64,000 nt of DNA, from contig MHLM01000004.1 in assembly GCA_001821395.1 (NCBI GenBank), positions 1-64,000 on the forward strand, written 5' to 3'. Source of the DNA: Candidatus Lloydbacteria bacterium RIFCSPHIGHO2_02_FULL_50_18. Lineage in GTDB: Bacteria; Patescibacteriota; Minisyncoccia; Phycocordibacterales; UBA6899. Position numbers and translations under genes: made by a program. The notes under the pieces were generated by a model that saw nothing but the letters and a program-made list of their open reading frames with translations, had not been told where the DNA came from and did not search any database. Shown here piece by piece: positions 8,459-41,673 of the stretch. Numbering within the stretch: the first letter of the stretch is position 1; each line of letters begins with the position of its first letter.

Positions 8459-8775
8459 TTTCATGTCGTAAGGGCTAGGCAAACAAAACCTTACGAGCAC
8501 TACTCCCTTAGTTTTCGTTATCGTATTCGGGTACTACGATTCTTATCCTGAAAATATGACACGAAGGATGGGCCTATCAGGCGTACTCCCGCTTCGCGCC
8601 GTCTACTTAAGCGTAGGCGAAAGCGAAATTGTTGGCCTTAAAGTAAGGCGTCGCAATTCCACCGGTGCTTTTCTTGGCACTTTCAAGTTGTTCGCGTGAT
8701 TTACGAGACTACGAACATGCTCGGCACGCACGATATACTACTTCTTCCACTGTCGAAACATTTCATCCCCCTAAA

Positions 8776-12859: not shown

Positions 12860-12932
12860 CCACCCGTAGCTCAGTTGGTAGAGCGGTCGTCTTATACACG
12901 ATTGGTCCCTGGTTCGAGTCCAGGCGGGTGGA
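12860..12932 (+). tRNA. tRNA-Ile (anticodon UAU; loop CTTATAC), no encoded CCA
   Basis: Hand-folded cloverleaf: acceptor CCACCCG/CGGGTGG, D-stem GCTC/GAGC, anticodon stem GTCGT/ACGAT, T-arm CCTGG-TTCGAGT-CCAGG. Confidence 0.7.
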
Positions 12933-12951
12933 CTCAGTTTTGAAAGAATTT

Positions 12952-22134: not shown

Positions 22135-22650
22135 TTATTGGGCTACGCTCGAAGTCGATTCGGTCGCGCTTATTGATTGGTTGGGACGAGTAAATTCCGG
22201 TGGTGGCGGGAGGATGCGAATGAGACGAGCGACGATCTCCCCATGCTCATTCGGGGTTCCGATCACAACGATATATTCATCGAGCGCAAGCTCCGAGGCT
22301 GATGCCTCATCACGAAGGCGCCTTACTTCCGTGCTTTGATCGGTCGTAATGACCTTTTCGATATTGTCCGTTCCGAGCACGGTTATCGTGGGGAGGGAGA
22401 GTTTGATGATGCGCCCAATGGCACCGTGCGCATTAGGAAATCCACGGTCTCCCATCATCCCGATCCCCGGTCCGCGCGGAGCGTCTCCGAATGCGCGATA
22501 ATAATCCTCACCCATGTGATAGGAAAAACCCGCACGGTGAAAACCGACGGAGATACCGGCTTGGAACACAGCAAGGAGGATGACGAGTGCTCCGAGGACG
22601 AGCATGACGAGCGTGAATTTTTTGGAGCGTGCGAATTGTTTGATATTCAT
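22135..22650 (-). CDS. membrane-anchored hypothetical protein
   Basis: Start trimmed to MNIKQFARSKKFTLVMLVLG (signal anchor). Confidence 0.4.
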   Translation of the reverse strand: MNIKQFARSKKFTLVMLVLGALVILLAVFQAGISVGFHRAGFSYHMGEDYYRAFGDAPRGPGIGMMGDRGFPNAHGAIGRIIKLSLPTITVLGTDNIEKVITTDQSTEVRRLRDEASASELALDEYIVVIGTPNEHGEIVARLIRILPPPPEFTRPNQSISATESTSSVAQ

Positions 22651-22660
22651 AGTGGGATAG

Positions 22661-23068
22661 TTAGATGAATTGATGAGTAAAAAATGCACCTGAATTCTTT
22701 GCTGCCAGCCGGAATGTCTGCAGCATGGTAAGTAGCGCTAGCAGAATGAGCGTGAGTCCAAGCAATGGAAGCGATTCAACGAGTGTGACGCTGAATTCCC
22801 GCCAATATGAAAGCACCGCGCCGCTGTCGGAGAAGAGGAGTGAAGCATAGTCGATAAATCCCGACTCAAGCATTTTTGCCGAAGTAGATGAGACAAGAGC
22901 GAAGAGTGCTACCCCCGATGCGAAACCAAATGCGGAAAATAGTGCAAATTTGATGCGCATGATGCGCAGACGTGCTTCGTCTATCCGTGCGATCACCGAC
23001 TGATGCAATCCTAAGGGTGCCCTCACTTTTGAAAGCCGCCGAAAAAGCTCCTCATAATTTTGTTTCAT
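22661..23068 (-). CDS. putative anti-sigma factor (membrane protein immediately downstream of ECF sigma)
   Basis: Gene order; N-terminal cytoplasmic helix then two TM segments; no sequence family confirmed. Confidence 0.4.
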   Translation of the reverse strand: MKQNYEELFRRLSKVRAPLGLHQSVIARIDEARLRIMRIKFALFSAFGFASGVALFALVSSTSAKMLESGFIDYASLLFSDSGAVLSYWREFSVTLVESLPLLGLTLILLALLTMLQTFRLAAKNSGAFFTHQFI

Positions 23069-23119: not shown

Positions 23120-23692
23120 CTACGTTTGTGATGGAAGGAGGAGTGCGCGGAGTTTTTCCACGGCGCGTCGTTGTTGGCTCTTCACGGTGTTCCTCGATTT
23201 TCCGAGCATCTCGGATATTTCTTCGAAGGTAAGCCCTTCTTCATAATGGAGTGTGAGTACTTCGCGTTCTGCAAAGGAGAGGATCGCGAGGGCGCGACCG
23301 AGTTCTTCCCCAAGTTCTTTCCGTGCAAAGAGTTCGTCGGGGAGTGGCTCGGGGTCTTTGGTCGTGTCGAGGATCGCGTTGCCTCCCTCGGCACTATCAA
23401 AATACGATAATGGTACGCCTTTCTTTTTGCGCAGGATGTCGACCGATGCATTATGTGCGATGGCGAGGAGCCACGTAAGAAAACGCCGATTCGTATCATA
23501 TGAGGCAAGGCGCTTCCACGCATTGATGAATACTTGCTGTGTCGCGTCTTCTGCAGTATGCGGGTCTCCCGAGAGGCGCAGGGAAAACGCATACACCGCG
23601 TCAATGTACTTTTCGACGAGTTGCGTGAATGCATCCTCGTCACCTTTCAGATATTTTTTTATCAAAATACCGTCCTCGTCGTTCATTCCCAT
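23120..23692 (-). CDS. RNA polymerase sigma factor, ECF (sigma-70 group 4) family
   Basis: Region 2 FINAWKR...FLTWLLAIAHN and region 4 LTFEEISEMLGKSRNTVKSQQRRA. Confidence 0.85.
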   Translation of the reverse strand: MGMNDEDGILIKKYLKGDEDAFTQLVEKYIDAVYAFSLRLSGDPHTAEDATQQVFINAWKRLASYDTNRRFLTWLLAIAHNASVDILRKKKGVPLSYFDSAEGGNAILDTTKDPEPLPDELFARKELGEELGRALAILSFAEREVLTLHYEEGLTFEEISEMLGKSRNTVKSQQRRAVEKLRALLLPSQT

Positions 23693-23945
23693 AAGCTAAG
23701 CATGGAATGAGCATGAGCGAAAGAAGAGCAGGCCTGAGTTCAACAATCAATTGCAACACTTGTGTGAGCGGTCGGTTATTAGAGGGGTGTTCATATTTGT
23801 GCTCCGATCTGTCTTTTGCTGTGCGGTGTTTATATTGTCTCCCTCTCTATATACAGAGAGATGGGGGATGAATATCCGAGCGGTTTTTGAACGTAAAAAG
23901 CATGATCATCGCCCCAAAGTATCGACTGTGATAAAATAAAGTATA

Positions 23946-25445
23946 GTGAATAACAAAGAACCCATCACCAGATCGAGAGATATGGCGCAGGCATCCGCAT
24001 CAGGCGCAGGTGCGGGTAGTGCGCATGCCAGGCACAGTCTGTCAAAAGTAGGACTGCTGAGAAAATATCTGACACTGGACGGGGACGAACCGAGTTTGTT
24101 TCGTCCGGTGCTGATCCTCTTCATTCTGCTGGTAAGCACCTTTGCGGTTGAACTTGGTGTCATGTTTCTGCCGTTATTCTTCTCGCTGTCACAATTTTGG
24201 GTTAGCGTGATAAGTGCGCTACTCCTCGTTGTCGTAGTGTATCCGCTGCTTATCAAATTTGTCTTCAGGGTGTTGGTTCGAGAAAGAACGGATGTGCAAA
24301 AAATAAAATGTATCGCGGAGGGCGCGTTCGAGAATCTCGTTCGCGAGGAATTACGCTACGAAATGATGGCAAAAGATCTGGAGAAATTCAAATTAGCCAT
24401 GGACAACGTTTCTGATCAGATCATTATCACCGATTCAGAAGGAATGCTGTCCTATGTTAATAAGTCGACAGAAATAATAACCGGAAAATTGCTGGAAGAC
24501 GTGATAGGAAAAAAGGCCGGTGTGCTCTGGGGGGCACCCATGACGACCGCCTTCTACGCAAACATGTGGGACACGATCAAGAAAGAAAAAAAAGTCTTCA
24601 GTGGAGAGATCCAAAATAAAAACAAAGAGGGAAAGCTCTATACCGCGATGATCAATATTTTTCCCGTGCTCGATAAAAAAGGCGAGATACTTTTTTTCGT
24701 CGGCGTAGAGCGGGACATCACGAGAGAGAAGGCGCTTGATCGGGCGCAGATCGAATTTCTGTCACTGGCGGCACACCAGTTGCGTACTCCGTTGACCGGT
24801 ATCGAGTGGACGGCCGATCTCTTTATGCGCAAGGAGCAATTGAGCGAGAACGGAATGAAATATCTTGCTGATATCCGATTTTCTGTGCAACGATTGAATA
24901 CGCTCGTCAGACTGTTTTTGAATTCCTCTCGCTTGCAGGGAGGAAAGCTGCGCGTCGAACCGCGGCCGGTTGAGGTGGTCGGCTTTGTCAGCGCTTTTCT
25001 TTCACGGTATGCGGTGGTGCATGAGAAGAAGCAGCTTCACGTTGCTTTTACGGAGCATCCGGAGAAGTTGGTCGTCATTACCGATCTCAACATGTTCGAG
25101 CAAGTCGTTCAGAATCTCATCGGGAATGCGATCGATTATACCCCGGCGGGTGGGAGTGTCACCATTGCGATCAAAGAAGAAAAGGATGACTTTCTCTTTG
25201 AGGTTCGCGACACGGGTATTGGTATCCCTGCGATCGAACAAGCACTGATCTTCGAACGGTTTAAGAGAGCAAGCAACGCGATCAGATCAAAACCGGATGG
25301 TAACGGAATGGGGCTTTACATCGTCGCGGAGACGATAAAACTCTTGGGCGGAAGGGTCTGGTTCGAGTCGACGGAGGGCGTGGGATCGACTTTTTACGCA
25401 AAAATCCCGCTGCGTGCTACAGAGATAGATACGAGGAAGTCATAA
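23946..25445 (+). CDS. sensor histidine kinase (2 TM, PAS domain, HisKA + HATPase_c)
   Basis: H-box AAHQLRTPL, N-box GNAIDYT, G-boxes DTGIGI and GMGLYIV. Confidence 0.85.
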   Translation: MNNKEPITRSRDMAQASASGAGAGSAHARHSLSKVGLLRKYLTLDGDEPSLFRPVLILFILLVSTFAVELGVMFLPLFFSLSQFWVSVISALLLVVVVYPLLIKFVFRVLVRERTDVQKIKCIAEGAFENLVREELRYEMMAKDLEKFKLAMDNVSDQIIITDSEGMLSYVNKSTEIITGKLLEDVIGKKAGVLWGAPMTTAFYANMWDTIKKEKKVFSGEIQNKNKEGKLYTAMINIFPVLDKKGEILFFVGVERDITREKALDRAQIEFLSLAAHQLRTPLTGIEWTADLFMRKEQLSENGMKYLADIRFSVQRLNTLVRLFLNSSRLQGGKLRVEPRPVEVVGFVSAFLSRYAVVHEKKQLHVAFTEHPEKLVVITDLNMFEQVVQNLIGNAIDYTPAGGSVTIAIKEEKDDFLFEVRDTGIGIPAIEQALIFERFKRASNAIRSKPDGNGMGLYIVAETIKLLGGRVWFESTEGVGSTFYAKIPLRATEIDTRKS

Positions 25446-25534
25446 GGTTAGTTAATAACTAGCTTGAGTAAATAAATGATCGTTGTTAAAATGAACCCGT
25501 GTGAGCAAGACGGTATTAACGGAACGATCGCCTA

Positions 25535-25957
25535 ATGAATAAAAACCTTATGAGTATGCAAACGATAGTACTGGTGGAGGACGACGAGATACTCGCTGAG
25601 GTGCTTGCGACCGAGCTCAGTGATGCCGGTTTTAAAGTTTTTCGGGCATCTGACGGAGAAGCCGGTTTAGCGTTGGCAAAAACAAAGAACCCGGACCTTG
25701 TCTTGCTTGATCTCATCCTCCCAAAGAAACATGGTTTTGAGGTGTTGGAGGAACTTAAGGGTTCTCCTGATACCCATCACATCGCTATTATCGTACTCAC
25801 ACTGCTCGGTGAAGACGACGACATAAAAAAAGGACTCAGTTTGGGTGCCGATGACTACATCGTTAAATCCAGTCATGCGGTGGCCGAAATTGTAGAAATG
25901 GTAAAAAGTTTTTTGTTAAAGAAAAATGCAACACCAATCCTTAAAAAGTCGAAATAA
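25535..25957 (+). CDS. single-domain response regulator (receiver only)
   Basis: VLVEDDE, phospho-acceptor LLDLILP, K in DYIVKS. Confidence 0.85.
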   Translation: MNKNLMSMQTIVLVEDDEILAEVLATELSDAGFKVFRASDGEAGLALAKTKNPDLVLLDLILPKKHGFEVLEELKGSPDTHHIAIIVLTLLGEDDDIKKGLSLGADDYIVKSSHAVAEIVEMVKSFLLKKNATPILKKSK

Positions 25958-25990
25958 TAATTCTCGTCATCTTCATTGTCGGATGCGATC

Positions 25991-26046
25991 GTCATCATTA
26001 CCGATGGCGTTTTCGACGATCGTGCTCTTTTTTTTGTTTTCTTTTT
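25991..26046 (+). terminator. hairpin (cgatcgtc ... gacgatcg) followed by long T-run after the response regulator gene
   Basis: Read directly. Confidence 0.4.
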
Positions 26047-26128
26047 TTGTGCATACGAGTAAGTCACCTTTTTATCCTTACTGCTCACACTCATGAACAC
26101 CATTCCCTGCTATCCCGAACCTGAAGGT

Positions 26129-29100
26129 ATGAAAAAGAAGATCAGCGCATTTTCTTTTGCGATACTTTGTGCGGTGATCCTTTTTTTTGGTGGGGCGAAC
26201 ACCGCCATGGCCGCAGCAAGAGTGGCTTCAGTCTCTGGTAATTGGAGTAGCACTGCGACATGGGGTGGATTGTCGGTGCCGACTTCTGCGGATACTGTCA
26301 CGATCAATAGTGGTATCACGGTCACGATAGATATTGCAGCAGCCGCCAGTACACTTACCTTTGCTGCAGTCACTACAAACAGTGCGGTAAACATAAGCGG
26401 GACAAACTCGCTTGCGGTAACCGGCCTAGTAAGCATGCCGAGACCATCGACTGGTCGAACAGCAACAATTGCTGTGGGTGCGGGGACATTCAATGCGGGC
26501 TCTCTCACGATGAGTGCGACGACCCTGGGGCGGAATGATATTTTGAGTATTTCGACCGGAACGGCCACGATAGCCGGAACGATCACTACCGGAACTACTG
26601 GCTGTCAACTGACTCTTACCGATGCCGGGACGCTGAATATCGGTGGCAACTTCACCAGTACTCCGACGCTCACGACATTTACCGGTTCTATGGTGAACTA
26701 CTATGGCAATGCCACGCAAACTATTCGACCGATCATCTATAGCAATCTCACACTCTCAGGTGCAGGCACAAAAAATTTTCCTGCAGCTGCAACGGTAAAT
26801 GGTAATTTGACTTTGAGTGGAACGGTAACGTCGACAACAGCCGCGGCAGAGATCATTGGCGGAAATCTTGACGTGGGTGCAGGGGCTACTTTTCGTACGG
26901 GAACAACGAACACTTGGACGCTTGGTGTGACGGGTACCACGAACGTCACAGGAACTCTGACGCTTGCAAATACCGGTACCAAAACATTCACCGGTGCGGT
27001 TACGCTGAATAGCGGTAGCACTTGGAGTGAGACCGGAATTGCTGCGGTGACCTTTAATGATGATCTGACAAACAACGCCACTACTTTTATGGCAAATACC
27101 GGAACGCATACCTTTGGTGGCATAACTCATACGTTAAGCGGTGCAACTACGATAGCGATTCCCGGAACGGCAACTTTCACAGGTCCTTATGCAAATAATG
27201 GAACGCTTACTGCCGCAACGCTCAGCGCAATTGGTGGAACTGCGGTTCTTACCAACAACGGTACCATAACTGTTTCTACTGCCTTGTCAGGAAGTGGCGG
27301 ATTCACTCAGGGAACTATGGGCGCATTGAATCACGGTGGTTCAACGATCGCTATCACCATATTTGAAGCTAGTGCCGTCGGGAATACGGTGAATTATACT
27401 GATGCAGCGCAGACGGTAAGAGCGGTAGCGTATGACAATCTGATCCTTTCCGGTTCTGCTGCAAAATCCATGGCCCCAGGCACTTCAGTTGCCGGTAATT
27501 TGAGCATTGCGCCTACTGGTTCAGCTTCGGCCAGTATTGCGGCAGGTCAAAATATCAGCGTTGACACATTGACACTTGGCGGCGCAGGGAAAAGTGACGG
27601 CACTTGGGGCTCAACCAGCTCTACTGCGACCAATCAGAACAATACCTATTTCGCTCCGACGACCGGCATCCTGACCGTCACGACTGATAGTCGAGTGCCC
27701 CAGGTAGCCCTGACTGCTACTGCCTCTCTGTCGACTGTTTCATATGGCTCGACGTCAACGCTCTCTTCAACGGGAGGATCCGGAACGGGGGCGGTATCAT
27801 TTTCAGTTGGTGCTTCGACCGGGTGTTCGATCACGGGGGGAGCAATTCTGAATGTAACGAATGTCTCTGGCACATGCGCGGTCACCGCAACAAAGGCTGG
27901 TGATGATACCTATAAGCCGGCATCATCGTCACCATTAACAGTTACCTTGACGAAAGCCACCCCAATCCTCTCCGTCACGAACTCACCCGTCACATACAAC
28001 GGTACATCGCAGTCGGCGACCGTGACCGGTTCAGTGTCCGGTACACCAAGCAATATCAAGTATGACGGTTCGGGAACCGCTCCCACGAACGCCGGCACAT
28101 ACGCCGTCACCGCGAACTTCACTCCCGCTGATACTACCAACTACTTCTCCCTCACCGACGCGTCGGCAGGGAGCTTCGTGATCACGAAGGTGACCCCGAC
28201 GCTCTCCGTCACGAACTCGCCCGTTGCCTATGACGCCGCACCTCATGCCGCAACTGTCTCGGGTTCCGTCGCGGGCTCCGCAAGTGCTATCCTCACGGGC
28301 GGTGCCGCATCACAAACGAACGCCGGTACCTATGCCGTCACCGCGAACTTCACGCCCGCCGACACCACGAACTATTTCTCTCTCACTGATGCGTCTGCAG
28401 GGGATTTCGTGATCACCGGAGTGGATCAGACGATAACCCTTGATGCTCTCTCGGATAAAATGCTTGGTGATCCCGATTTTGTCGTCTCAGCTACTTCCTC
28501 TTCAGGTCTGACTGTCTCATTCTCATCGCTTACTACGAGTGTTTGCACAGTGACTGATCCAACGGTACACCTTGTCTCTGTGGGAACGTGTACGATCCGC
28601 GCCGCACAAGGTGGGAGCGGTAACTACAATCCTGCTCCAAACGTAGATCAGTCATTTTCAGTCAATCATCCGGCGACAAAATTCGTCATTCTTCCACCCA
28701 CGGATGGTACAACGGATGCGCCAGTCACTGTTACTATTCAGGCACAGAAAGCGGATAATAATATCGATACCAGTTATCAGGACGATGTGACGCTCGGTAC
28801 CACCGGATCCGCATCGGGTGGCGGACTCGTTGATATCGAAAATGGCATCGGCACGAAGAATATTTCTGACATCATGGCAGAATCGATCACACTTTCGCTT
28901 GATGACTCGGAGCTTACGGGGCTTGATTTCTCATCAACGCAACCGCTCGTGTTCCACGCAGGCGCAACCGCTCAGTTTTCCCTCAGTCACCCTGCGACGT
29001 TGGCCGCAGGAGAGCGGGCACCGTACGTTGTTACTCGTCAAGACCAGTATGGCAACAACACTGCGAGCGCAACAAGCACCGTGTATTTCTTCAGTTCATC

Positions 29101-31747
29101 ATCCGGCGTGAATAAGAAATTTTATGATGCCGCATCCGGAGGAAGCATTGTTTCGTCGATCGTCATCTCCGGCGGGCAATCATCGGGGAATGTGTGGTAC
29201 TACGATGAACTAGGAGGAGAATGGACGATCACCGTATCCGATAATGCAGGAGGCCCCGATGGGAATGCTGGGGTCAATGATGCCATCGACTTACTCCAGG
29301 TAAACGCGGGTTTCGTGTCTAAATTCTTATTCAATGATCCTGGTGATATGATGGCAGGCACCCGACTTGCATATACCGTTACTCGTAAAGATCAGTTCGA
29401 TAATCTTGCCTCAGTCGGCATCACCCCCGCCTATCTTTACAGCGATTCTACCGGCACCAGCGCTCCTCAATTCTACGATTCCGCGATCGGGGGAAGCGTC
29501 ATCTCCATTCTTTCAATTCCGAACGGCTCTTCGACTGTATCCGTTTGGTATTCCGATCCGAACCCCGGGACTTGGACGGTTACCGCGTCCGATCACGCGA
29601 CCGCTCCGGACGGAGCGGCGGGTATCATTGATGCTACTGATGCGGTGGTCGTTGGTGCCGCCCCCATCGTTGCAACGCGATTCGTGATCAGACCATCGGT
29701 GAATGGAACAGTAGATGCACCGATTACGGTCACTGTGCGTGCGGAAGACGCAAACGGAAATGTTGATACGTCGTATCAAGAAGATGTGACGTTGAATGCA
29801 GATGGTTCTGCCTCAGGTGACGGACTAGTGAATATCGTCAACGGCGTTGGCACTATCGCGCTCGCTGATACTGTTCCGGAAGATGTGAATCTTTCGCTCA
29901 CTGACAGCGAAGCAACCGGTCTCGATTTCTCGTCAATGCGGGTAGTGACCTTTGCTCCCGGTGCCGTCGCACAATTCTTGCTTGATAATCCGGGTGATGC
30001 TGCTGCCGGTATGCGCATCGCATACAATGTCACACGTCTAGATCAGTATGGTAACTCGGTGTCATCCGGGGCAACAACGGTTCATCTCTATAGCACGTCA
30101 GACGGAGTGAATAAAAAGTTCTATGATGCGGCGATCGGAGGCAGCGCGATCACGTCGATCGTCATTCCGAACGGTTTCTCTTCCGTCGGATTCTGGCAGT
30201 ACGATGAAAAGAGCGGCAACTGGTTCGTTACGGCTTCCGATAATGCTACGGTACCCGACGGTGCGGACAATATAGATGATGCGAGCGACGCCATCACCGT
30301 GCAACCGGCAGCCCTTGCGGCATTTGTGCTTAATGAACCGGGAAATATGACCGCGGGTACGCGACTGGGCTACACGGTCACGCGCCGGGACCAATTCGAG
30401 AACCAGGTTACGAGTGGTGTGGCTCTTGCATATCTCTACTCATCTTCACCTGCGACGACAACTGCGTTCTATGCGGCAGCGACCGGAGGGTCACCAACGA
30501 CCTTTATCACCATCAATGACGGCAATGCGGTCGGTAATTTCTGGTACTACGATGAGACGGACGGCACTTGGCTTGTGACCGTCTCTGATTCGGCCGTCGC
30601 GCCTGATGGTGCCGTCGGTGTACGTGATGGGTCTGACCTGGTATCAGTGAGCGCAACGCCAATCACGGCAACTCGTTTCGTGATCCTTCCCGTATCATCG
30701 GTGCAGGTAGGCTCGCCTGCGACGGTTACCGTGGAGGCACAGGATAATGCGGGGAATATTGATACTACCTACCAGTCTGATGTGATGCTTCATGCAAGCG
30801 GATCGGCGACCGGAGACGGACTGGTGAACATCGTGAATGGCGTGGGGACAATGACCCTCAGGGATGCAGTTGCGGAAGCAGTTACATTGTCGCTTTCTGA
30901 CACGGAAGACACTCTTCTTGATGTGTCTTCGACTCGGCTGCTTACCTTTACCGCGACCCCTGTTGTTCCATCGTCAGGTGGTATCGGGAGCACTGCATCC
31001 ACCCCGGCACCGGCCCCCTTCGTTCCACGCGTTACGGGAGTGCAGATCTCGGGGGTAGCATTTCCGCAAGCATTCATCCATGTTCTTGCGACCTCGGGAG
31101 AAGGATCGGCAATGCAAGGTCAAACGACTGCTACTGCGAACGGCTCGTTCTCATTGTTGTTGAAAAATGTGAAAGTAGGTGCCGGCTCCTACGGTATCAT
31201 CGGCATTGATAAGCTTGGATTCACAACTCAGACGAGAGTGTTCAACGCGAATTATGCGAATAAAGATACATTGCTCGATCTCGGTGCGCTACTGCTTTCT
31301 CCAACACTCAATCTCGTTCATCCGACGGTGCGAAAGAGCGATGTAGTGGGATTTGTGGGGATGGCGGGACCAAGGTACGCTGTTGACGTAGAGATTGACG
31401 GAGAGTCCGCAACTGCTCGTACCGTAGCGTCTGCTGACGGCTCCTACAAGGTACTCTTCCCGACCGGCGAACTCGCGCTGGGTAGTCATACGGTTCGAGT
31501 GCGCCAGACATCACCAAGCGGTAAACAGAGTGAAAATTCACCTCAAAAGATATTCACCGTTACAAGCCTTTTCACTCCGCAGACTGATTTTAATCAAGAT
31601 GGTATAATCAATGTACAAGACTGGAGCATCTTCATCTCACGATGGATGTCTTCTATCGAGGCGACGCGTCTGCTTGATGACCTGAATAATGACGGTAAAG
31701 TGGATGTCTCGGATCTCAGCATCTTCGTTCGCACAATTAAAAGATAG
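26129..31747 (+). CDS. giant repetitive cell-surface protein (Thr/Gly/Ala-rich beta-repeat N-region, Ig-like tandem domains, C-terminal dockerin-like double calcium-binding repeat)
   Basis: Signal peptide after MKKKIS (RBS GAAGGT); internal repeats; C-terminal DFNQDGIINVQDWSIF...DLNNDGKVDVSDLSIF matches the dockerin repeat pattern. Confidence 0.85.
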   Translation: MKKKISAFSFAILCAVILFFGGANTAMAAARVASVSGNWSSTATWGGLSVPTSADTVTINSGITVTIDIAAAASTLTFAAVTTNSAVNISGTNSLAVTGLVSMPRPSTGRTATIAVGAGTFNAGSLTMSATTLGRNDILSISTGTATIAGTITTGTTGCQLTLTDAGTLNIGGNFTSTPTLTTFTGSMVNYYGNATQTIRPIIYSNLTLSGAGTKNFPAAATVNGNLTLSGTVTSTTAAAEIIGGNLDVGAGATFRTGTTNTWTLGVTGTTNVTGTLTLANTGTKTFTGAVTLNSGSTWSETGIAAVTFNDDLTNNATTFMANTGTHTFGGITHTLSGATTIAIPGTATFTGPYANNGTLTAATLSAIGGTAVLTNNGTITVSTALSGSGGFTQGTMGALNHGGSTIAITIFEASAVGNTVNYTDAAQTVRAVAYDNLILSGSAAKSMAPGTSVAGNLSIAPTGSASASIAAGQNISVDTLTLGGAGKSDGTWGSTSSTATNQNNTYFAPTTGILTVTTDSRVPQVALTATASLSTVSYGSTSTLSSTGGSGTGAVSFSVGASTGCSITGGAILNVTNVSGTCAVTATKAGDDTYKPASSSPLTVTLTKATPILSVTNSPVTYNGTSQSATVTGSVSGTPSNIKYDGSGTAPTNAGTYAVTANFTPADTTNYFSLTDASAGSFVITKVTPTLSVTNSPVAYDAAPHAATVSGSVAGSASAILTGGAASQTNAGTYAVTANFTPADTTNYFSLTDASAGDFVITGVDQTITLDALSDKMLGDPDFVVSATSSSGLTVSFSSLTTSVCTVTDPTVHLVSVGTCTIRAAQGGSGNYNPAPNVDQSFSVNHPATKFVILPPTDGTTDAPVTVTIQAQKADNNIDTSYQDDVTLGTTGSASGGGLVDIENGIGTKNISDIMAESITLSLDDSELTGLDFSSTQPLVFHAGATAQFSLSHPATLAAGERAPYVVTRQDQYGNNTASATSTVYFFSSSSGVNKKFYDAASGGSIVSSIVISGGQSSGNVWYYDELGGEWTITVSDNAGGPDGNAGVNDAIDLLQVNAGFVSKFLFNDPGDMMAGTRLAYTVTRKDQFDNLASVGITPAYLYSDSTGTSAPQFYDSAIGGSVISILSIPNGSSTVSVWYSDPNPGTWTVTASDHATAPDGAAGIIDATDAVVVGAAPIVATRFVIRPSVNGTVDAPITVTVRAEDANGNVDTSYQEDVTLNADGSASGDGLVNIVNGVGTIALADTVPEDVNLSLTDSEATGLDFSSMRVVTFAPGAVAQFLLDNPGDAAAGMRIAYNVTRLDQYGNSVSSGATTVHLYSTSDGVNKKFYDAAIGGSAITSIVIPNGFSSVGFWQYDEKSGNWFVTASDNATVPDGADNIDDASDAITVQPAALAAFVLNEPGNMTAGTRLGYTVTRRDQFENQVTSGVALAYLYSSSPATTTAFYAAATGGSPTTFITINDGNAVGNFWYYDETDGTWLVTVSDSAVAPDGAVGVRDGSDLVSVSATPITATRFVILPVSSVQVGSPATVTVEAQDNAGNIDTTYQSDVMLHASGSATGDGLVNIVNGVGTMTLRDAVAEAVTLSLSDTEDTLLDVSSTRLLTFTATPVVPSSGGIGSTASTPAPAPFVPRVTGVQISGVAFPQAFIHVLATSGEGSAMQGQTTATANGSFSLLLKNVKVGAGSYGIIGIDKLGFTTQTRVFNANYANKDTLLDLGALLLSPTLNLVHPTVRKSDVVGFVGMAGPRYAVDVEIDGESATARTVASADGSYKVLFPTGELALGSHTVRVRQTSPSGKQSENSPQKIFTVTSLFTPQTDFNQDGIINVQDWSIFISRWMSSIEATRLLDDLNNDGKVDVSDLSIFVRTIKR
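27940..28440 (+). repeat. in-frame tandem repeats of ~231 nt (77 aa) inside the giant gene
   Basis: Near-identical DNA at 28111-28220 and 28342-28440. Confidence 0.6.
28675..31000 (+). repeat. three ~1-kb (about 333-aa) tandem domain repeats inside the giant gene
   Basis: Blocks beginning ATKFVILPPTDG (28675), ATRFVIRPSVNG (29677), ATRFVILPVSSV (30670), each with a conserved VNIVNGVGT / FYDAAIGGS subdomain. Confidence 0.6.
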
Positions 31748-31758
31748 CAATCATTGTC

Positions 31759-33480
31759 ATGTCGCATCAGTACACCGGTATGTCTGTCGGGCAACATCTC
31801 CTTTTTGGTGTGATTGCCGCCATCTTCGCTTTTTCTGCCCCAGTAATGGCGTCTGCCGCATCATACGATCTTACTGTCGATAAAGACACTTTCGTCATCG
31901 GGGACACGTTCAATGTCGATGTAAAAATAGCAAGTGCTGATGTGGGTATCAATGCTGCTCAGGCGACCATCACCTACCCCAACGATATCCTCCTGGTGAC
32001 CAATCTCGACAAAGGGAATTCCGCATTCAATTTTTGGCTTCAGGGTCCTGAATACGCCAACGAAACCGGACGAGTGACATTCATTGGAGGAAGCCAGAAC
32101 AGTATCTCAGGGAAAGCTCTTCCCGTGCTCCGGATCACTTTCAAGGTGAAAGGGGCTGGACCGATCGCGATCATCTTTTCTGACGGTGCGGTTACCGCGA
32201 GCGACGGAAGCGGTACGAACGTCCTTTCCGCGATGAACGGCCTGCATCTAACAAGCATCACGAAGCAGGATGCAACGTTCATTAAACCTCCCCAGATCGA
32301 ACGCCCGGCAACGCCGTCGGTCGTGCTACCCGTGAAGCCGGTGATCACCGTCCCCCTCTACCCGGAACAGGAAAAATGGAGCAATGTATCCGCACGATTC
32401 TTTGTAAGTTGGAAATTGCCGTCCGATGTCACCGCGGTTGCAGTGGCGCTCAATAAGACCCCTCTTTCATCACCAGCGGTGTCGGAAGGACTTTTCGAAC
32501 TCAAAGAGTTCGCTCCGCTTCAGGATGGGGTCTATTATCTTCATGCGCGCTTTATGAACGACGAAGGATGGGGGAAGGCCCTCCATTATCGTATCGCTGT
32601 CGACACACTGCCCCCACCGCTTTTTAAGATCGACATTGCCGCACTGAGCGATAATCCTACTCCAACAGTGGTCACAAACGTGGAGGATGCGCTTTCGGGT
32701 ATCTCTAGCGTAGTATTTCTTGTTGATGACAAGGAAGTACTTCAAACTGCAAGTACGTCAGCAAAACTGCCCCCCGTAGGTCCAGGATCGCACGTATTGC
32801 GGGTGAAAGTCATTGACCGTGCGGGGAATAGCTCCGAGGAGAGCACCTCATTTGAGATCACACCGCTTCCGACGCCGATCATAGAATTTCTTTCCGTTTC
32901 TGCTACCCTCGAAGAACCCGTTATTGCACTTGGAAAATCCATTCCAAATGCATTCATTGATGTCAGCGTATTGAACGCTCTGCAACAGGAGATATTGAAG
33001 GATACCGTTGAAAGTGACACTTCAGGAGTCTGGAGAGTGAACCTAGGGCAATCGCTCCATTCTGGGAAATACACGCTTGCGGTAACCGCTCGGGACGTGC
33101 GTGGGGCATTAAGCTATCCCACCAAAGACGGAGCATTCAGGGTGCGACCGCAAGTGGTGCTGTCGTTCGGAGGGCTTATCGATCTTAGTTGGTTGGAGAT
33201 ATTTCTTATCACATTAGTCTTCATTATCGTTGGAGGAGGTCTTGCCGCATGGCGCTATGTTTCGGAGAAGCGGGTTCGAGAAGCGTACAAGATCGTCGTG
33301 AGCCAGGATGTTGAAAAGTTTGGCTCCATGCTCTCGTCTTCTCTGAAAGAACTTGGGGCCATACAAAGAGTTCCCGAGCCGGGTCGGTCAGCAAAGGTAG
33401 CGTCACTCGTTGCATCGATGAAAGATCGGGTCGCAAAATTGAAAAAGTATATCGGTACGGAGGTGAGTAAAATGAAGTAA
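31759..33480 (+). CDS. cohesin-like domain membrane-anchored surface protein (signal peptide, N-terminal cohesin-like beta-sandwich, Ig-like domains, C-terminal TM anchor)
   Basis: N-terminal region YDLTVDKDTFVIGDTFNVDVKIASADVGINAAQATITYPNDILLV...VLRITFKVKGAG resembles cohesin modules; C-terminal TM helix + basic tail. Confidence 0.6.
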   Translation: MSHQYTGMSVGQHLLFGVIAAIFAFSAPVMASAASYDLTVDKDTFVIGDTFNVDVKIASADVGINAAQATITYPNDILLVTNLDKGNSAFNFWLQGPEYANETGRVTFIGGSQNSISGKALPVLRITFKVKGAGPIAIIFSDGAVTASDGSGTNVLSAMNGLHLTSITKQDATFIKPPQIERPATPSVVLPVKPVITVPLYPEQEKWSNVSARFFVSWKLPSDVTAVAVALNKTPLSSPAVSEGLFELKEFAPLQDGVYYLHARFMNDEGWGKALHYRIAVDTLPPPLFKIDIAALSDNPTPTVVTNVEDALSGISSVVFLVDDKEVLQTASTSAKLPPVGPGSHVLRVKVIDRAGNSSEESTSFEITPLPTPIIEFLSVSATLEEPVIALGKSIPNAFIDVSVLNALQQEILKDTVESDTSGVWRVNLGQSLHSGKYTLAVTARDVRGALSYPTKDGAFRVRPQVVLSFGGLIDLSWLEIFLITLVFIIVGGGLAAWRYVSEKRVREAYKIVVSQDVEKFGSMLSSSLKELGAIQRVPEPGRSAKVASLVASMKDRVAKLKKYIGTEVSKMK

Positions 33481-33504
33481 GAATTATTTCTTTGTTCAAC
33501 AAAA

Positions 33505-33529
33505 ACCAGCATGACAGTGCTGGTTTTTT
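33505..33529 (+). terminator. rho-independent terminator
   Basis: accagca-tgacag-tgctggt then TTTTTT. Confidence 0.65.
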
Positions 33530-33673
33530 ATGTGCGGAGGGGGCGAGATGTTCGACGCCTACTGCGTCAGTACCCGTTTCCCATTTTCTCAACATAAGAA
33601 TGTCTCGAAAATAGGGGAGAACGGCTTCGAATCTCGCACGAAAGTCGAGCAGTCGACTTTCTCTCCTCCGCAT

Positions 33674-33707
33674 AAAAAAATCACGCTCATGCGAGCGGAT
33701 TTTTAAA
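33674..33707 (-). terminator. hairpin + T-run immediately downstream of the minus-strand type II tRNA
   Basis: Minus strand ccgctcgcatgagcg followed by ATTTTTTT. Confidence 0.45.
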
Positions 33708-33796
33708 TGCGGAGGGGGCGAGATTCGAACTCGCGGACCGTTTAACGGGTCGACAGTTTAGTAAACTGTTGATTTAAACCACTCATCCACCCCTCC
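33708..33796 (-). tRNA. type II (long variable arm) tRNA, Ser-like; anticodon loop TTACTAA gives nominal anticodon ACU (unusual); CA after the discriminator
   Basis: Hand-folded: acceptor GGAGGGG/CCCCTCC, 3-bp D-stem, anticodon stem ACAGT/ACTGT, long arm, T-arm GCGAG-TTCGAAT-CTCGC. Confidence 0.5.
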
Positions 33797-33829
33797 CTGA
33801 TTCCTGTACTGTAGCATAAAATGCAGCCA

Positions 33830-34360
33830 TGAAAGAGAGAGGGCGGGAATTGGTCACAAGTCATACCATCTCCAGTTAACTCTTTCTGCTCACAGAAGTT
33901 TCAAAGGTCAGTCCTTGGCCCTGCCTGCGCAGGCAGGTTTGAAAGGTCTCTCCTTGGAAACTGATTCGGAAGACCTTAACGAGAGATGGTATCACTAAGC
34001 GTATGCGGAGCAAGGCTCCTTATCCGTTAAGTGCACCACGGAGAGGGCGGGAATTTCTCGGCTTACAGCCGCAATACACCTTTGCGATTTATTCAGCATA
34101 AGAATGCTTCACAAATATCACCACGAGGAGTACTTCATTTTTCTAAGACGGAGTACCGTTAAGAAAAATTGGTCGCGCAAAGCTTTTCGAATCTCTTTGC
34201 GAGAGGGCGGATGCGGTCACGAGTTACTAAGCTTTTTATTTCGCTTCGCTCATAAAAATCTAAGTACTCTCGACCCCGACTCGGCTACGACCTTCGACGA
34301 GCTCAGGTCGGCTTCGCGCCTCCGTCTTTCGAATCCCGCCCTCTCGCGCAATGGCATATT
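33830..34360. repeat. array of partial copies of the tRNA-Ser 3' end, plus an 18-bp palindrome cctgcctgc|gcaggcagg at 33920-33937
   Basis: Copies at 33831-33860, 34038-34066 and 34199-34230 are direct (same orientation as the gene); 34340-34356 is inverted. Confidence 0.55.
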
Positions 34361-34381
34361 AAAAAAGACCTTTCGGTCATT

Positions 34382-34471
34382 TTTAAGCCATTGGCGGAGA
34401 GGGCGGGATTCGAACCCGCGAGGGGTTTTATCCCCTGCCACGTTAGCAGTGTGGTGCCTTCAGCCGCTCGG
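34382..34471 (-). tRNA. tRNA-Ser (anticodon GCU), CCA encoded
   Basis: Hand-folded type II cloverleaf: acceptor GGAGAGG/CCTCTCC, loop CTGCTAA, long arm, T-arm GCGGG-TTCGAAT-CCCGC. Confidence 0.8.
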
Positions 34472-34581
34472 CCACCTCTCCAAAATATTATTGCTCATGT
34501 AACTTAGCATATTGAGCGCTACTTATCAAAGTACCCCAAGAGAAAGCAGCATTTGGGAAGTTCTGGCTATTTCCCGCGAAC

Positions 34582-35271
34582 ATGCTAATTTGTGTCGAGA
34601 ACTATTTATGGGGGTTTCACGTGGATCTTTGTCATCTCGCGGTAGAAAAAAACGTGCGGGCGTTCATGAATATTATTGTGGAGACTTGCCGCAGGCTTGA
34701 CGTCGAGGTACTCCTCTGCGAGGGTGATCGTGTTGAATATGGCGGTATTTACAGCAATGGATATTTTGGCAACATAAGCCCTCTCTCTGTGCGTTACGCA
34801 GTTGCCGTTGGAAAGCCGACGTCTCTGTGGCTTCCTGTTGCGCTGCATGAATTCTGTCACTTGGAACAATGGGCTGAGGGCGCTCCCGTTTGGATCGATC
34901 AGGAGTTTTCAAAGACAATGTGTGCCTTTGATCTGGTGATGGAATGGTGTGGGGGTAAGGACCTGTCAAAAGAAGAGGTAATCCGACTTGTTCGCCTTGC
35001 GCGCGAGTTGGAGCGGGATTGTGAAGAACGCGCACTCCGGAAGATCACGCAGTTTGAGCTTCCGCTCGATCCTCTCGAGTACACACAAAAGGCAAATAGC
35101 TATTTGTTCTTTTATACCGCCATGATTGAGACGAAACAATGGTACGTCCGTGCGCCGTATGAGGTTCCCGAAGTGTGGACGTTGATGCCCACCATACTTT
35201 TGCCGGCGGGCGATTACGATACGCTTCCTGGGGAATACCTCGAGGCATTCAAGAAGCATCTCTTTGCATAG
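34582..35271 (+). CDS. hypothetical protein with HExxH-like motif (HEFCH)
   Basis: Complete ORF, start uncertain (alternative ATG 34666); no family recognised. Confidence 0.4.
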   Translation: MLICVENYLWGFHVDLCHLAVEKNVRAFMNIIVETCRRLDVEVLLCEGDRVEYGGIYSNGYFGNISPLSVRYAVAVGKPTSLWLPVALHEFCHLEQWAEGAPVWIDQEFSKTMCAFDLVMEWCGGKDLSKEEVIRLVRLARELERDCEERALRKITQFELPLDPLEYTQKANSYLFFYTAMIETKQWYVRAPYEVPEVWTLMPTILLPAGDYDTLPGEYLEAFKKHLFA

Positions 35272-35292: not shown

Positions 35293-35961
35293 TTAATGCG
35301 CGACGGCAAGCGCAAGAATACGCTTCGGTTTCCAGACCCTTACGACCCGCCGCGCCTCACTCATCGTGGCGCCGGTGGTGATGACATCGTCGATAAGGAT
35401 GACCGTTTTTCCGAATAGTTTTTCGCCGTCGCGGATGTCGAATGCATTGGCGACATTTTGGGCGCGCTTTACTCTTCCTCTCGCTTTTACCTGCTGGAGG
35501 ACCTCTTTCTTCTTATAGAGCACGTTTCTTGGGGCGGAGATGCGCATCCCATCCGCCTTTCCGCATTTTACGATAGTTTCGGCGATGATCGCTGCATGGT
35601 TGTACCCGCGCGACGCAAGCGCTTTCTTATTCGCAGGAATAGGGAGCAGTATGATCTCTTCACCAAGATGTTTCCCCCCTTTTATGAGCTGCTTGAAGAA
35701 TTCACGATAGAGTGCCGTTCCGAAATATCGTCCAAGCGCACGCCTCCGGTGGTATTTGAGTGCCCAGATCGCTTTTTTGACAAGTGGTTGTTGATAGTCA
35801 AAGAGTATCGCCGTCGTCCCCGAAAGCGCCTTCGCTTTTGTGGTAATCGCGCGTTCGCAGATGGCGCAGAGAGCGCTTCCTTCCCGACCACAGCCGATAC
35901 ACCGTTCGGGGAAAATAAACGAAAGAATGTCTTCCCATATCATATTTACCACAGTGTACAT
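35293..35961 (-). CDS. comF: ComF family protein (phosphoribosyltransferase-type competence protein)
   Basis: N-terminal CxxC...CxxC zinc finger, C-terminal PRTase motif VILIDDVITTGAT. Confidence 0.8.
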   Translation of the reverse strand: MYTVVNMIWEDILSFIFPERCIGCGREGSALCAICERAITTKAKALSGTTAILFDYQQPLVKKAIWALKYHRRRALGRYFGTALYREFFKQLIKGGKHLGEEIILLPIPANKKALASRGYNHAAIIAETIVKCGKADGMRISAPRNVLYKKKEVLQQVKARGRVKRAQNVANAFDIRDGEKLFGKTVILIDDVITTGATMSEARRVVRVWKPKRILALAVAH

Positions 35962-36059
35962 GCCTTTATCGTCCCCGCAAGGTGGTACGCTGGCGTTCTC
36001 GCTCTTGTAGTCCCCACCTCGACTTCACTATTGATTTTATGCCGTGGTATGATTGTGTC

Positions 36060-37175
36060 ATGCCGAATCCGTTTGAAAAATTACTTGCCTCGTTCGCACC
36101 AAAAAAAGGGGGGAATGGCGTCGTGGGGGTGGACATTGGAAGCGCATTCATTAAGGTCGTAGAGTTGCACAAAAAGAATGGTAAGGCGGTGCTCGATACC
36201 TACGGCGAGATCGCTCTTGGTCCGCTTGCATCCCTTGAGGTTGGACAGGCGACAAACCTCACGACGGACAAGCTCGTTGAAGCGACGAATGATCTCTTTC
36301 TTGAAGCCAACGTCAAAAGTCGAAATCTCGTTTTTTCCCTTCCGCTTACATCGACCTTGGTGACGGTCATTGAAATGCCCGATGTCGGAGAGGCTAAATT
36401 GAAAGACATGATCCCGATGGAGGCGCGAAAGTATATCCCAACGTCTGTATCTGAAGTATCACTTTCACATTGGGTTATACCGAAGATCTCGCGTACCTAT
36501 ATCGATCCTGATAAGGCTGATGCGGAAAAAGGGGCACCTGCGAAGGTGGATGTGCTCCTTGCCGCAGTGCACAATGATGTGTTGGCAAAATACACCGATA
36601 TCGCCAAAAAACTTGGTGCAACGGCAACCGCATTTGAGATCGAGATATTTTCTACTATCCGTTCAACGATGAGCCGTGATACTACGGCGACGATGGTCGT
36701 TGATATCGGGGCGGGAAATACAAAGATCGCGATCGTTGAAGAAGGCGTTTTGCGGAGTTCTCATCTTATTAACGTAGGGTCCCAAGACGCAACGCTTGCA
36801 CTTTCACGTGCAAAAAGCATCAGCCTCCTCAGGGCGGAGGAGATAAAGCGCGAGTTCGGACTCTTGGGTGATCCGTCGGATGCATCGATCGCGGAGATCA
36901 CACGACTAGCTGTGGAACGCATCTTTTCCGAAGCAAGCCGAATTATGATGAACTACCAGCATGAAAAGCGCGTCAGTATCAATCGTGTCGTGCTTTCCGG
37001 AGGAGGGGTACTCATGAAGGGTGTCATGGATCTTGCGCAAAAAAGTTTTGAGACGACGGTGGTTAATGGTGATCCGTTTGCAAAGGTTGAGTCGCCTGCC
37101 GCCATCACTCCGCTCCTCAAGGAGTCCGGACCTGAGTTTGCGGTCGCCATTGGACTTGCGCTTCGAAATCTGTAG
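36060..37175 (+). CDS. pilM: type IV pilus assembly protein PilM (actin-like ATPase)
   Basis: VGVDIGSAFIKVVEL N-terminal actin fold start, DIGAGNTKIAIVE second phosphate motif; start trimmed to ATG 36060. Confidence 0.85.
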   Translation: MPNPFEKLLASFAPKKGGNGVVGVDIGSAFIKVVELHKKNGKAVLDTYGEIALGPLASLEVGQATNLTTDKLVEATNDLFLEANVKSRNLVFSLPLTSTLVTVIEMPDVGEAKLKDMIPMEARKYIPTSVSEVSLSHWVIPKISRTYIDPDKADAEKGAPAKVDVLLAAVHNDVLAKYTDIAKKLGATATAFEIEIFSTIRSTMSRDTTATMVVDIGAGNTKIAIVEEGVLRSSHLINVGSQDATLALSRAKSISLLRAEEIKREFGLLGDPSDASIAEITRLAVERIFSEASRIMMNYQHEKRVSINRVVLSGGGVLMKGVMDLAQKSFETTVVNGDPFAKVESPAAITPLLKESGPEFAVAIGLALRNL

Positions 37176-37265
37176 TCGAGATCAAAAACCCGCATCTCTT
37201 TTTACTCAACTGTAGACAACTTCCTCGCAAAGTTTCTCTATTTCTTGTAAAATAAGGGTCTAGGA

Positions 37266-37973
37266 ATGCAAAATTCATTCGATACATCATTTATTCCGCA
37301 ACAGCCACTGCTTAAGGTGGCGGGGTTTGACCGCCGTCGCGAGTCGCTGAATCTCGCAATAGTGCTTTCGCTTGGCGCGTTTTTTATCGTACTTTTTGTC
37401 GCGGTGGGCGTCTATTTCTTTCATCGGAAGGTAGTGGGAGAGGTGCTTGCGCTTGCCGTGGAACTAGAGGATAAAGAAAAATTGATCGACATCGACGAGA
37501 TCGATCGTCTTAAGAGCGTCGATCTTCGTATCGTGGCAGCAAAAAATCTACTTCAAGATCATACGGTATTTACGATCATTCTTAATTTTCTGGAGGCGGG
37601 AACACTGAAAAACATAGGAATAACATCACTTTCCTACGCAAATAGTCCAGGCGGTTCTATTGTAAGTCTCGTCGCAGAGGCGCCAACCTACGAAGCGGTT
37701 TATTCGCAGGGAGAAACGTGGAGGAGCATGAAACCATTGGTTGAGAAAGTCGATATCTCCTCGGTTGTTCTTGCGGAAGCAACCGGTGTTGTTACTTTTA
37801 TTACAAAGATCACGATCAATCATGGTTTGACGCGTTATGCTGAATTTTTGAAGTCGGAAAAGATGAGTAAAAATGAGGAAATTACCGAGCCGGGTATTAT
37901 TCCGGTAATGAATGACCAATTCGAATTAGACGGAACGACATCATCCATACCAGTTAGTCCAGCCGCGCTATGA
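37266..37973 (+). CDS. PilN-like pilus assembly protein (single TM, coiled coil)
   Basis: Position after pilM, bitopic topology. Confidence 0.5.
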   Translation: MQNSFDTSFIPQQPLLKVAGFDRRRESLNLAIVLSLGAFFIVLFVAVGVYFFHRKVVGEVLALAVELEDKEKLIDIDEIDRLKSVDLRIVAAKNLLQDHTVFTIILNFLEAGTLKNIGITSLSYANSPGGSIVSLVAEAPTYEAVYSQGETWRSMKPLVEKVDISSVVLAEATGVVTFITKITINHGLTRYAEFLKSEKMSKNEEITEPGIIPVMNDQFELDGTTSSIPVSPAAL

Positions 37974-38533
37974 TCAATAGATATCTCACTCCCGTGTTTC
38001 TCATGATCCTTTCGGGGGCAGTATATGTCATCTGGGTTGATGCACCATACAAAGATATTGCAGCACAACAAGCAAAGGCGGAGGTGTTGCGAGGCTACAT
38101 CGCTGATGCCGATAATGCACAGGAAGAATTACAAAAGATTGCGGCGCAGTATGATGCATTCCCCCCAGATGGTGATCGTCGTCTTCAGGTATTACTCCCC
38201 AAGGAGATCGATACCGTCCGTCTCATCATCGATGTGAATGAGATCGCCGCGCGTCATGGCATGGGCGTTAATGATCCGATGGTCGGGAAAGCGGCGACCG
38301 ATGAGTCGCGACCGCAAGCATACGTTCCGTACTCATTGAGTTTCAAAACGACCGCTACCTACGATGTATTTCGCGATTTTCTTGCTGACCTCGAACGATC
38401 GCTCGCGTTGCGTGATATTGTAACGGTGGAATTCTCTTCAGTCGCTTCTATCGCGGCTAGTAGCGGGTCGCAGCCTCCTGATGTCGCTATATTTAATTTC
38501 AGCATACATATCGTCAGTTACGGACTTCACTAA
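37970..38533 (+). CDS. PilO-like pilus assembly protein
   Basis: Single N-terminal TM, coiled coil, gene order; 4-nt overlap with upstream gene. Confidence 0.5.
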   Translation: MINRYLTPVFLMILSGAVYVIWVDAPYKDIAAQQAKAEVLRGYIADADNAQEELQKIAAQYDAFPPDGDRRLQVLLPKEIDTVRLIIDVNEIAARHGMGVNDPMVGKAATDESRPQAYVPYSLSFKTTATYDVFRDFLADLERSLALRDIVTVEFSSVASIAASSGSQPPDVAIFNFSIHIVSYGLH

Positions 38534-41271: not shown

Positions 41272-41673
41272 ATGCCAAAAGAAAAAAAAGAACCCACGAT
41301 CCTTATTATCGACGATGATTCATTTCTTCTCGATATGTATGCCTTAAAGTTTTCCCAGAAGAATTTTCATGTGACGACGGCATCCGGTACGCTCGAAGCT
41401 CTTGAAAAACTGCGCGGCGGATTTGTTCCGGAGATCATGGTTGTCGATCTCGTAATGCCGGCAATGGACGGGTTTGAATTCCTCGAAGTCGTGCGGGGAG
41501 AAAAGCTCGTGAAGGACTCATTGGTGATCATCCTCTCCAATCTTGGCGAACAGGAGGATATCGACCGCGGACTCGGACTTGGTGCGGCCGGGTACATCAT
41601 AAAGGCATCCGCTACGCCATCTGAGGTGGTGGAAAAAGTATCGGAAGTGCTCGGAAAGAGAGATAAAAAATAA
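41272..41673 (+). CDS. single-domain CheY-like response regulator
   Basis: ILIIDDD, VVDLVMP phospho-acceptor Asp, K in YIIKAS. Confidence 0.8.
   Translation: MPKEKKEPTILIIDDDSFLLDMYALKFSQKNFHVTTASGTLEALEKLRGGFVPEIMVVDLVMPAMDGFEFLEVVRGEKLVKDSLVIILSNLGEQEDIDRGLGLGAAGYIIKASATPSEVVEKVSEVLGKRDKK

Follow-up and report, generated by a model that had tools for sequence, protein, structure and literature searches.

Several described systems place a partner protein on the cell surface through a single cohesin. In Ruminococcus flavefaciens, the cell-anchored single-cohesin protein ScaE holds CttA/ScaB via X-Doc, and the partner genes lie in one cluster. In Clostridium thermocellum, a single surface cohesin directly displays one dockerin protein, as captured for OlpA/OlpC (PDB 3ul4, 4dh2). 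Cohesin and dockerin modules also work together outside cellulose degradation, in the glycosidase/toxin complexes of Clostridium perfringens (2vo8, 2jh2, 2ozn) and in Archaeoglobus fulgidus (2xdh), and such noncellulosomal pairs are already established (background cited in PMC6030884). The eukaryotic TMEM132 proteins combine a signal peptide, a cohesin, three BIG domains, a transmembrane (TM) segment and a cytoplasmic tail, and a role in connecting adhesion with the cell interior has been proposed for them (PMC6030884). The cultivated Saccharibacterium Southlakia epibionticum encodes a dockerin-domain protein, SEML1_0315, that is essential for epibiotic growth by transposon sequencing (Tn-seq); the paper makes no mention of cohesins (PMC10633639). 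Here we analyze a 64-kb stretch of DNA (the window) from a metagenome-assembled genome (MAG) of Candidatus Lloydbacteria, within the candidate phyla radiation (CPR)/Patescibacteria, in which two adjacent genes encode a secreted giant cargo protein ending in a dockerin (gene A) and a cohesin-tipped type I membrane anchor protein (gene B). Building on the observed domain identities, topology signals and synteny, we consider it probable that A and B are a cognate, noncellulosomal cohesin-dockerin pair that builds a two-piece fiber on the surface of the Lloydbacteria cell.

As in ScaE/CttA, the Lloydbacteria locus would join a single-cohesin anchor to a nonenzymatic, adhesin-like protein whose C-terminal dockerin sits behind a possible accessory module, and the fold and profile matches include R. 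flavefaciens cohesins. ScaE, however, is attached to peptidoglycan by the sortase/LPXTG route; B instead carries a TM helix and, behind it, a conserved tail that is predicted to be cytoplasmic. CttA binds cellulose within a true cellulosome with multi-cohesin scaffoldins, and that system has no attached two-component genes and does not come from the CPR. The OlpA/OlpC structures appear at ranks 8 and 33 among the PDB matches of the B cohesin, but that system differs in its SLH anchor, enzyme cargo, unlinked many-to-one partners and sigmaI/RsgI regulation, as against the kinase and CheY-like regulator found here. The best structural match is the cohesin of C. perfringens GH33 (E 1.5e-8, TM score 0.71-0.81); whereas the known noncellulosomal pairs join secreted enzymes, here a membrane anchor and an adhesin-like fiber would be joined in a strictly syntenic, one-to-one fashion across the radiation. 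The domain order of B is nearly that of TMEM132, an architectural resemblance only; TMEM132 has an extra conserved N-terminal region, and vertebrates are not known to have a dockerin partner for it. SEML1_0315 resembles A as a dockerin-bearing envelope protein with immunoglobulin (Ig)-like domains whose gene directly follows those of a PAS histidine kinase and a response regulator (PMC10633639); compared by description, it differs in its 927-aa length, its one predicted TM segment and its surroundings, where no adjacent cohesin gene is listed and the next gene lies on the opposite strand.

Gene A falls within an open reading frame (ORF) of 1884 aa at 26093..31747 (+). Its likely start is Met13 at 26129, where a classic signal peptide opens behind a GAAGG Shine-Dalgarno-like motif, giving 26129..31747 (+) for the gene. 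The stop codon of A and the start of gene B (31759..33480, +) are 11 nt apart, and the 573-aa product of B is 100% identical to the hypothetical protein A2845_01055 of a Candidatus Lloydbacteria MAG. A hidden Markov model (HMM) scan of all six frames found exactly one dockerin and one cohesin in the window. The dockerin module (31583..31744, +) is recognized by Pfam, by its Ca-loop positions and by a family profile, and comprises two Ca-binding loop-helix segments, DFNQDGIINVQD-WSIFISRW and DLNNDGKVDVSD-LSIFVRTI, in which a 12-residue loop (aa 1832-1843 and aa 1863-1874, respectively) with F-hand Ca2+-ligand positions is followed by a helix. Pfam Dockerin_1 (PF00404) matches aa 1831-1880 of A over model positions 2-54 of 57; the whole protein scores 23.4 bits against a cut-off of 22.9, and the isolated last 110 aa score 27.7 bits (E 3.2e-6). 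Among relatives, all 79 orthologous C-termini match PF00404 individually (best E 1.1e-11), and across 78 related C-termini the Ca-ligand columns of both segments are occupied by D1 (100%), N3 (85-86%), D5 (92-95%), D/N9 (90-98%) and D12 (100%). A profile of the family matches the solved dockerins 4fl4_A (E 3e-7), 2y3n_B, 1daq, 2vn6_B, 5lxv_B and 6kgc_B, along with generic EF-hand proteins and 2jnk/2ozn. A homologue search with the C-terminal 284 aa of A returned just six proteins. The helices of the two segments differ systematically across the family (L-x-R-W versus L-R-T-L), which would argue against the symmetric dual-binding pattern of type I dockerins.

In B, an N-terminal hydrophobic signal segment (aa 14-32) is followed by the domain that we assign as a cohesin (~aa 33-170; 31855..32268, +) from an AlphaFold2 model, a Foldseek comparison, Pfam matches in relatives and invariant columns, which include the motif TASDGSGTN at aa 146-154. 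The model of aa 29-185 is all-beta and confident (pLDDT 92.5, pTM 0.83); its top 50 Foldseek matches in the PDB are all cohesins, with probability 1.00 and E 1.5e-8 to 4e-6, and type I, type II, type III and noncellulosomal (C. perfringens, A. fulgidus) cohesins match at similar scores. The predicted fold, a nine-stranded beta-sandwich of the jelly-roll kind, thus supports the cohesin assignment. One observation weighs against it: B itself has no Pfam match to PF00963 at E<=1, the sole feature expected of a cohesin or dockerin that fails at this locus. Among 48 aligned full-length relatives of B, 35 do match PF00963 (best E 6.9e-11); in a check of six, the scores were 25.3-37.1 bits against a gathering threshold of 24.1 over residues ~29-189, and the relative P0002, 63% identical to B over 561 aa, matches at aa 42-145. 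The family is large and in part already named: matches reach E 1e-227, NCBI calls several members "cohesin domain-containing protein," and the top 150 relatives are mostly full-length (~570-600 aa) and align in a single stretch. A 50%-clustered library holds 3,239 representatives at E<=1e-30, a figure that includes Ig-repeat giants matched via their Ig domains only.

The strongest evidence that the two modules belong together is their synteny. Loci were gathered by homology to B only, through three encoding-contig look-ups and a scan that took a single genome for each species, which found 159 relatives and from which 80 loci were kept, one per genome. At every one of the 80 distinct loci with upstream DNA, the window included, the same-strand ORF abutting the cohesin gene ends in a dockerin, whose end lies 0-7 residues from the C-terminus of the product; three further loci start at a contig end and hence have no upstream DNA. 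Each locus has one dockerin and one cohesin. The host MAGs are assigned to Ryan-, Giovannoni-, Magasanik-, Nealson-, Wolfe-, Jorgensen-, Buchanan-, Staskawicz-, Uhr-, Colwell-, Yonath-, Harrison-, Adler-, Nomura- and Lloydbacteria. Some third-party MAGs labeled "uncultured Candidatus Saccharibacteria" or "Gammaproteobacteria" have this CPR-type cassette too, in one case on a chromosome of 886 kb; their taxonomic labels are probably unreliable (L009, L012, L014, L026, L066, L077, L081 and others). Because the synteny is invariant and the domain identities are complementary in kind, we strongly infer binding, and A and B likely form a cognate surface complex. The recurrence of the cassette in every related genome examined suggests that variable attachment proteins may be mounted on the cell surface in this way throughout the lineage.

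These results bear on a preliminary description of the same DNA, made by reading the sequence, which had paired a type I dockerin in A with a cohesin-like N-terminus in B as a two-component surface scaffold. Its ORFs, the signal peptide, TM segment and basic tail of B, and the upstream kinase and regulator are all recovered by ORF calls, Pfam and a hydrophobicity scan; the cohesin-like domain is upheld by the predicted fold, by the uniformly cohesin PDB matches and by the Pfam matches of relatives; and the pairing gains strong support from the strict synteny. The dockerin itself stands on PF00404, the Ca loops and the profile, but its label as type I is not established, as cohesin types match about equally and a conserved Ig-like domain abuts the dockerin, much as in X-Doc dyads. 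Of the family models that had been named as checks, Dockerin_1 exceeds its cut-off in A, whereas PF00963 is silent on B itself and positive only in relatives; structure prediction, also named there, returned the confident cohesin fold.

Beyond the cohesin, B continues through a Pro-rich linker into an Ig-like stalk (aa ~200-468; 32356..33162, +) with matches to Big_13 (51 bits), Big_7, Y_Y_Y and OmpL47-type domains. Within and just ahead of the stalk, aa 195-290 (32341-32628) rank with the best-conserved parts of the anchor family, with Y201, W207, W218, D223, G257, F265, N267, D282 and P286 invariant; the only family match there is a weak, SiiE-like Ig match that extends across the region. 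Stalk-type Ig domains are also used in very long repeat proteins: the best profile matches include giants of 4,000-7,300 aa (P0247, P0271, P0327, P0358, P0366) with 30-49 tandem copies. A shorter form of the anchor, ~470-490 aa (P0014-P0020 and others), can be aligned with B no farther than about residue 375-384 and seems to lack part of the Ig stalk; the dockerin partners closest to that of the window are found at loci with this shorter form (L024, L025, L030, L034, L039, L049, L052, L075, L080). A hydrophobicity scan places a single TM helix at ~aa 473-495 (33175..33243, +), and the conserved 77-aa tail behind it (33247..33477, +), predicted to be cytoplasmic from the topology, is basic, with 17 K/R against 8 D/E (net +9) and an invariant Tyr564.

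Protein A opens with a signal peptide (26129..26212, +), read from its sequence, which starts MKKK, and from a hydrophobicity scan; the putative cleavage site separates MKKKISAFSFAILCAVILFFGGANTAMA from AA. The N-terminal head (~aa 41-545; 26213..27727, +) is predicted to be a right-handed beta-helix. It is rich in T/G/A/S/N and poor in charge (only 30 of 525 residues), with hardly any acidic or basic position conserved; it is internally duplicated at a 231-aa offset and, bar weak G8 matches, is covered by no Pfam family. In fold it is closest to the passengers of autotransporter adhesins (pertactin, Vag8, Hap, TibA, Ag43), at sequence identities of only 10-17%; unlike type V autotransporters, A has no C-terminal beta-barrel translocator, belongs to a cell with no outer membrane and would be anchored by its dockerin instead. 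Relatives of aa 36-560 (P0127-P0246) make up a widespread unnamed surface module, present in many phyla and elsewhere joined to type IX secretion system sorting domains, PG_binding_1 or a dockerin. Weak phmmer matches of A to a VIM beta-lactamase in the PDB were judged spurious. The head is followed by MBG/Big_3_5-type domains of 77-78 aa each (aa 541-783; 27713..28441, +; MBG_3 36 bits, weak Big_3_5), which are 66-83% identical to one another, and then by ~2.4 copies of a 333-aa super-repeat (aa 861-1644; 28673..31024, +), each combining an Ig-like unit of ~100 aa with a pair of 116-aa units, and the copies are 50-58% identical in amino acid sequence. Conserved Ig-like domain(s) (31025..31582, +) abut the dockerin and are kept in 79/81 partner proteins; the profile of this family weakly matches a Bap-like surface protein, and the domain is possibly an analogue of the X-module.

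The MBG-type domains and the super-repeat correspond to the 231-nt and ~1-kb in-frame repeats of the preliminary description, which are real; the proneness to length variation ascribed to them is not supported. Tandem Repeats Finder reported zero arrays in 26000-33600, and the reading as a hypervariable tandem array was rejected on that ground. Because, in addition, only stretches of ~100 nt reach 70-84% identity at the DNA level (84% over 101 nt for copies 231 nt apart at 28085/28316, 70% over 94 nt for copies 999 nt apart at 29073/30072), slippage-type instability seems unlikely, and the repeats look like diverged in-frame domain duplications. Units homologous to the super-repeat occur in 45/81 partner proteins, and copy numbers range across lineages from 0 to 5 for the MBG unit, 0 to 5 for the Ig unit and 0 to 10 for the 116-aa unit; length therefore evolves through gain and loss of modules over long time scales.

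We posit that B is exported, with its C-terminal TM helix retaining it in the cytoplasmic membrane and the Ig-like stalk keeping the cohesin clear of that membrane. A would be secreted through Sec, and its Ca2+-loaded dockerin, backed by the conserved Ig-like domain, would plug into the B cohesin. Because the dockerin that would plug into B is C-terminal, the Ig-repeat shaft and the pertactin-like beta-helix head would face outward. The base (Ig-like domain and dockerin) and the socket are conserved in the lineage, and the head and shaft are swapped or resized. On this reading, the system would be a universal mount on which each lineage places its own adhesin, the likeliest use being to attach to host cells or other surfaces. 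It may be under the control of the adjacent kinase and CheY-like regulator.

These two genes lie immediately 5' of A on the same strand and have the domains of a two-component system. The sensor histidine kinase (23946..25445, +) has hydrophobic, membrane-like N-terminal segments followed by PAS, HisKA and HATPase_c (Pfam), and the regulator (25535..25957, +) is a CheY-like receiver with Pfam Response_reg alone and no output domain. Among the 54 loci with both flanks, a receiver-only regulator stands directly beside the pair in 49 (19 upstream, 24 downstream, 6 both); 47 have a histidine kinase no more than 5 kb away. The flanking regulators share 46-53% identity with one another, compared with ~40% for other receivers at the same loci, and 61 of 77 fall into one cluster; a second receiver-only regulator of the window (41272-41673), near pilus genes, is ~33% identical to them. 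Because this linkage is near-constant, the real conserved unit is, as far as gene order and sequence tell, a four-gene module of kinase, regulator, dockerin cargo and cohesin anchor.

The linkage raises the possibility that the bound pair is an adhesion-signaling device, in which the tail of B addresses the CheY-like regulator and kinase, reporting adhesin load or engagement to the cytoplasm or altering adhesion from inside. This idea is compatible with the surface fiber and extends it. The constancy and mutual likeness of the flanking regulators, the lack of a DNA-binding output domain in the regulator of the window, the conservation of the tail with its Tyr564 and the recurrence of the kinase, regulator, dockerin-protein order in S. 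epibionticum all speak for it. On the other hand, the linkage might simply reflect transcriptional or post-translational control of expression via an unlinked output, kinase size and the number of PAS domains differ greatly, and the separation of the regulator cluster is modest; on balance, we regard such a device as unlikely, if worth keeping in mind. Slightly more doubtful is the broader proposal that the cassette is the conserved host-attachment organ of Patescibacteria and resembles a bacterial integrin, with a universal socket bearing a signaling tail and interchangeable adhesin heads. If this were true, a one-way or two-way coupling would connect fiber engagement or force with the linked two-component system and could steer the switch between the free and host-attached states.

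Alternatively, the cargo could be an S-layer-like or spacer protein tethered by cohesin and dockerin, serving envelope architecture and not ligand binding. The near-universal presence of the cassette, at one locus per genome among those retrieved, and the repetitive Ig-like domains of the shaft would suit such a coat. However, cargo length ranges from 447 to >3300 aa over the partners, and the distal head is common to only 8/81 of them, a variability typical of host- or ligand-recognition proteins and not of lattices; the likeness of the head to autotransporter adhesins points the same way, and we find a structural coat quite improbable.

It would be more surprising still if the two neighbors did not bind each other, with the dockerin engaging another cohesin, a glycan or a host, the cohesin finding other partners, and adjacency reflecting co-regulation. 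Promiscuous, unlinked partners are indeed the rule in cellulosomes, as is well established. Against this stand the adjacency at 80/80 loci over very divergent lineages, the single copy of each module per locus and in the window, and a covariation between the modules: their mutual information peaks between position 6 of dockerin loop 1 and the S/K position of the cohesin motif DG[S/K]GTN, where the counts are 55 for G/S, 14 for nonG/(K or R), 2 for G/(K or R) and 0 for nonG/S. The top score is 0.57, against 0.34 and 0.48 for control domains, so the excess is modest; the minority class is also the short-cargo class, and a single lineage split could explain the pattern. The covariation, confounded with clade as it is, is suggestive only, but combined with the synteny it makes independence of the neighbors very hard to credit. 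Finally, a minimal cellulosome-like complex for polysaccharide degradation can be set aside as having almost no chance of being correct: no glycoside hydrolase (GH), polysaccharide lyase (PL), carbohydrate esterase (CE) or carbohydrate-binding module (CBM) family was found in A or B with Pfam, the one cohesin and one dockerin in 64 kb come with no multi-cohesin scaffoldin and no dockerin-bearing carbohydrate-active enzyme, and the head, nearly devoid of conserved acidic and basic residues, has adhesins as its best folds, in keeping with the earlier suggestion of attachment over cellulolysis.

Patescibacteria/CPR account for a large share of bacterial diversity, and their cultivated members live on host cells. 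To our knowledge, their attachment is largely unexplained beyond type IV pili. We found no description of the cassette in the searchable literature on cohesins and dockerins in CPR, Patescibacteria, Parcubacteria and Saccharibacteria, the sole relevant item being the mention of a dockerin in SEML1_0315. It differs from the known systems in the TM anchor with its conserved tail, the strict one-to-one pairing, the adhesin-like, nonenzymatic cargo and the two-component linkage across Patescibacteria. The candidate two-gene module would give lineage-specific adhesin heads a single, conserved membrane socket, extend cohesin-dockerin biology to TM-anchored, one-to-one, nonenzymatic use and possibly give a context to the essential Southlakia protein. 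The ~75-aa dockerin and ~140-aa cohesin are expressible targets, the heads could be screened against candidate hosts, and the G/S and nonG/KR classes are possibly orthogonal pairs for protein engineering.

The downstream end of the cassette is marked by a tRNA-Ser gene (33709..33796, -; Rfam tRNA, 55.8 bits) convergent with B, for which ARAGORN gives the anticodon ACU, with an unusual A34; a second tRNA-Ser (GCU; 34392-34481) is likewise convergent with the cohesin gene. A promoter/terminator scan of 23600-34600 gave a signal no higher than expected from shuffled sequence, so we place the operon boundaries by gene spacing and by the convergent tRNAs. Transcribed divergently from the kinase gene are a sigma factor of the ECF type (23120-23692, -), a pair of small membrane ORFs (22135-23068, -), perhaps including an anti-sigma factor, and an HlyD-family membrane-fusion protein (20342-22129, -). 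On the other side, 35293-38533 holds a ComF-like phosphoribosyltransferase (-) and then PilM, an unannotated ORF and PilO (+), of a type IV pilus or competence cluster. A functional tie of the cassette to pilM/pilO was rejected, because the gene tables of related loci show no nearby pilus genes, and is further weakened by the low identity of the receiver near them to the cassette regulators; the nearness of the two clusters appears coincidental. Elsewhere in the window, ARAGORN identifies a tRNA-Ile with anticodon UAU (12860-12933, +), an uncommon decoding solution; in most bacteria, the AUA codon is read by a lysidine-modified CAU tRNA. The window also contains a match to the LOOT small RNA (5621-5752, +; 51.9 bits, just over the gathering score of 46.4) and a full-length transfer-messenger RNA (8382-8770, -; 119.9 bits).

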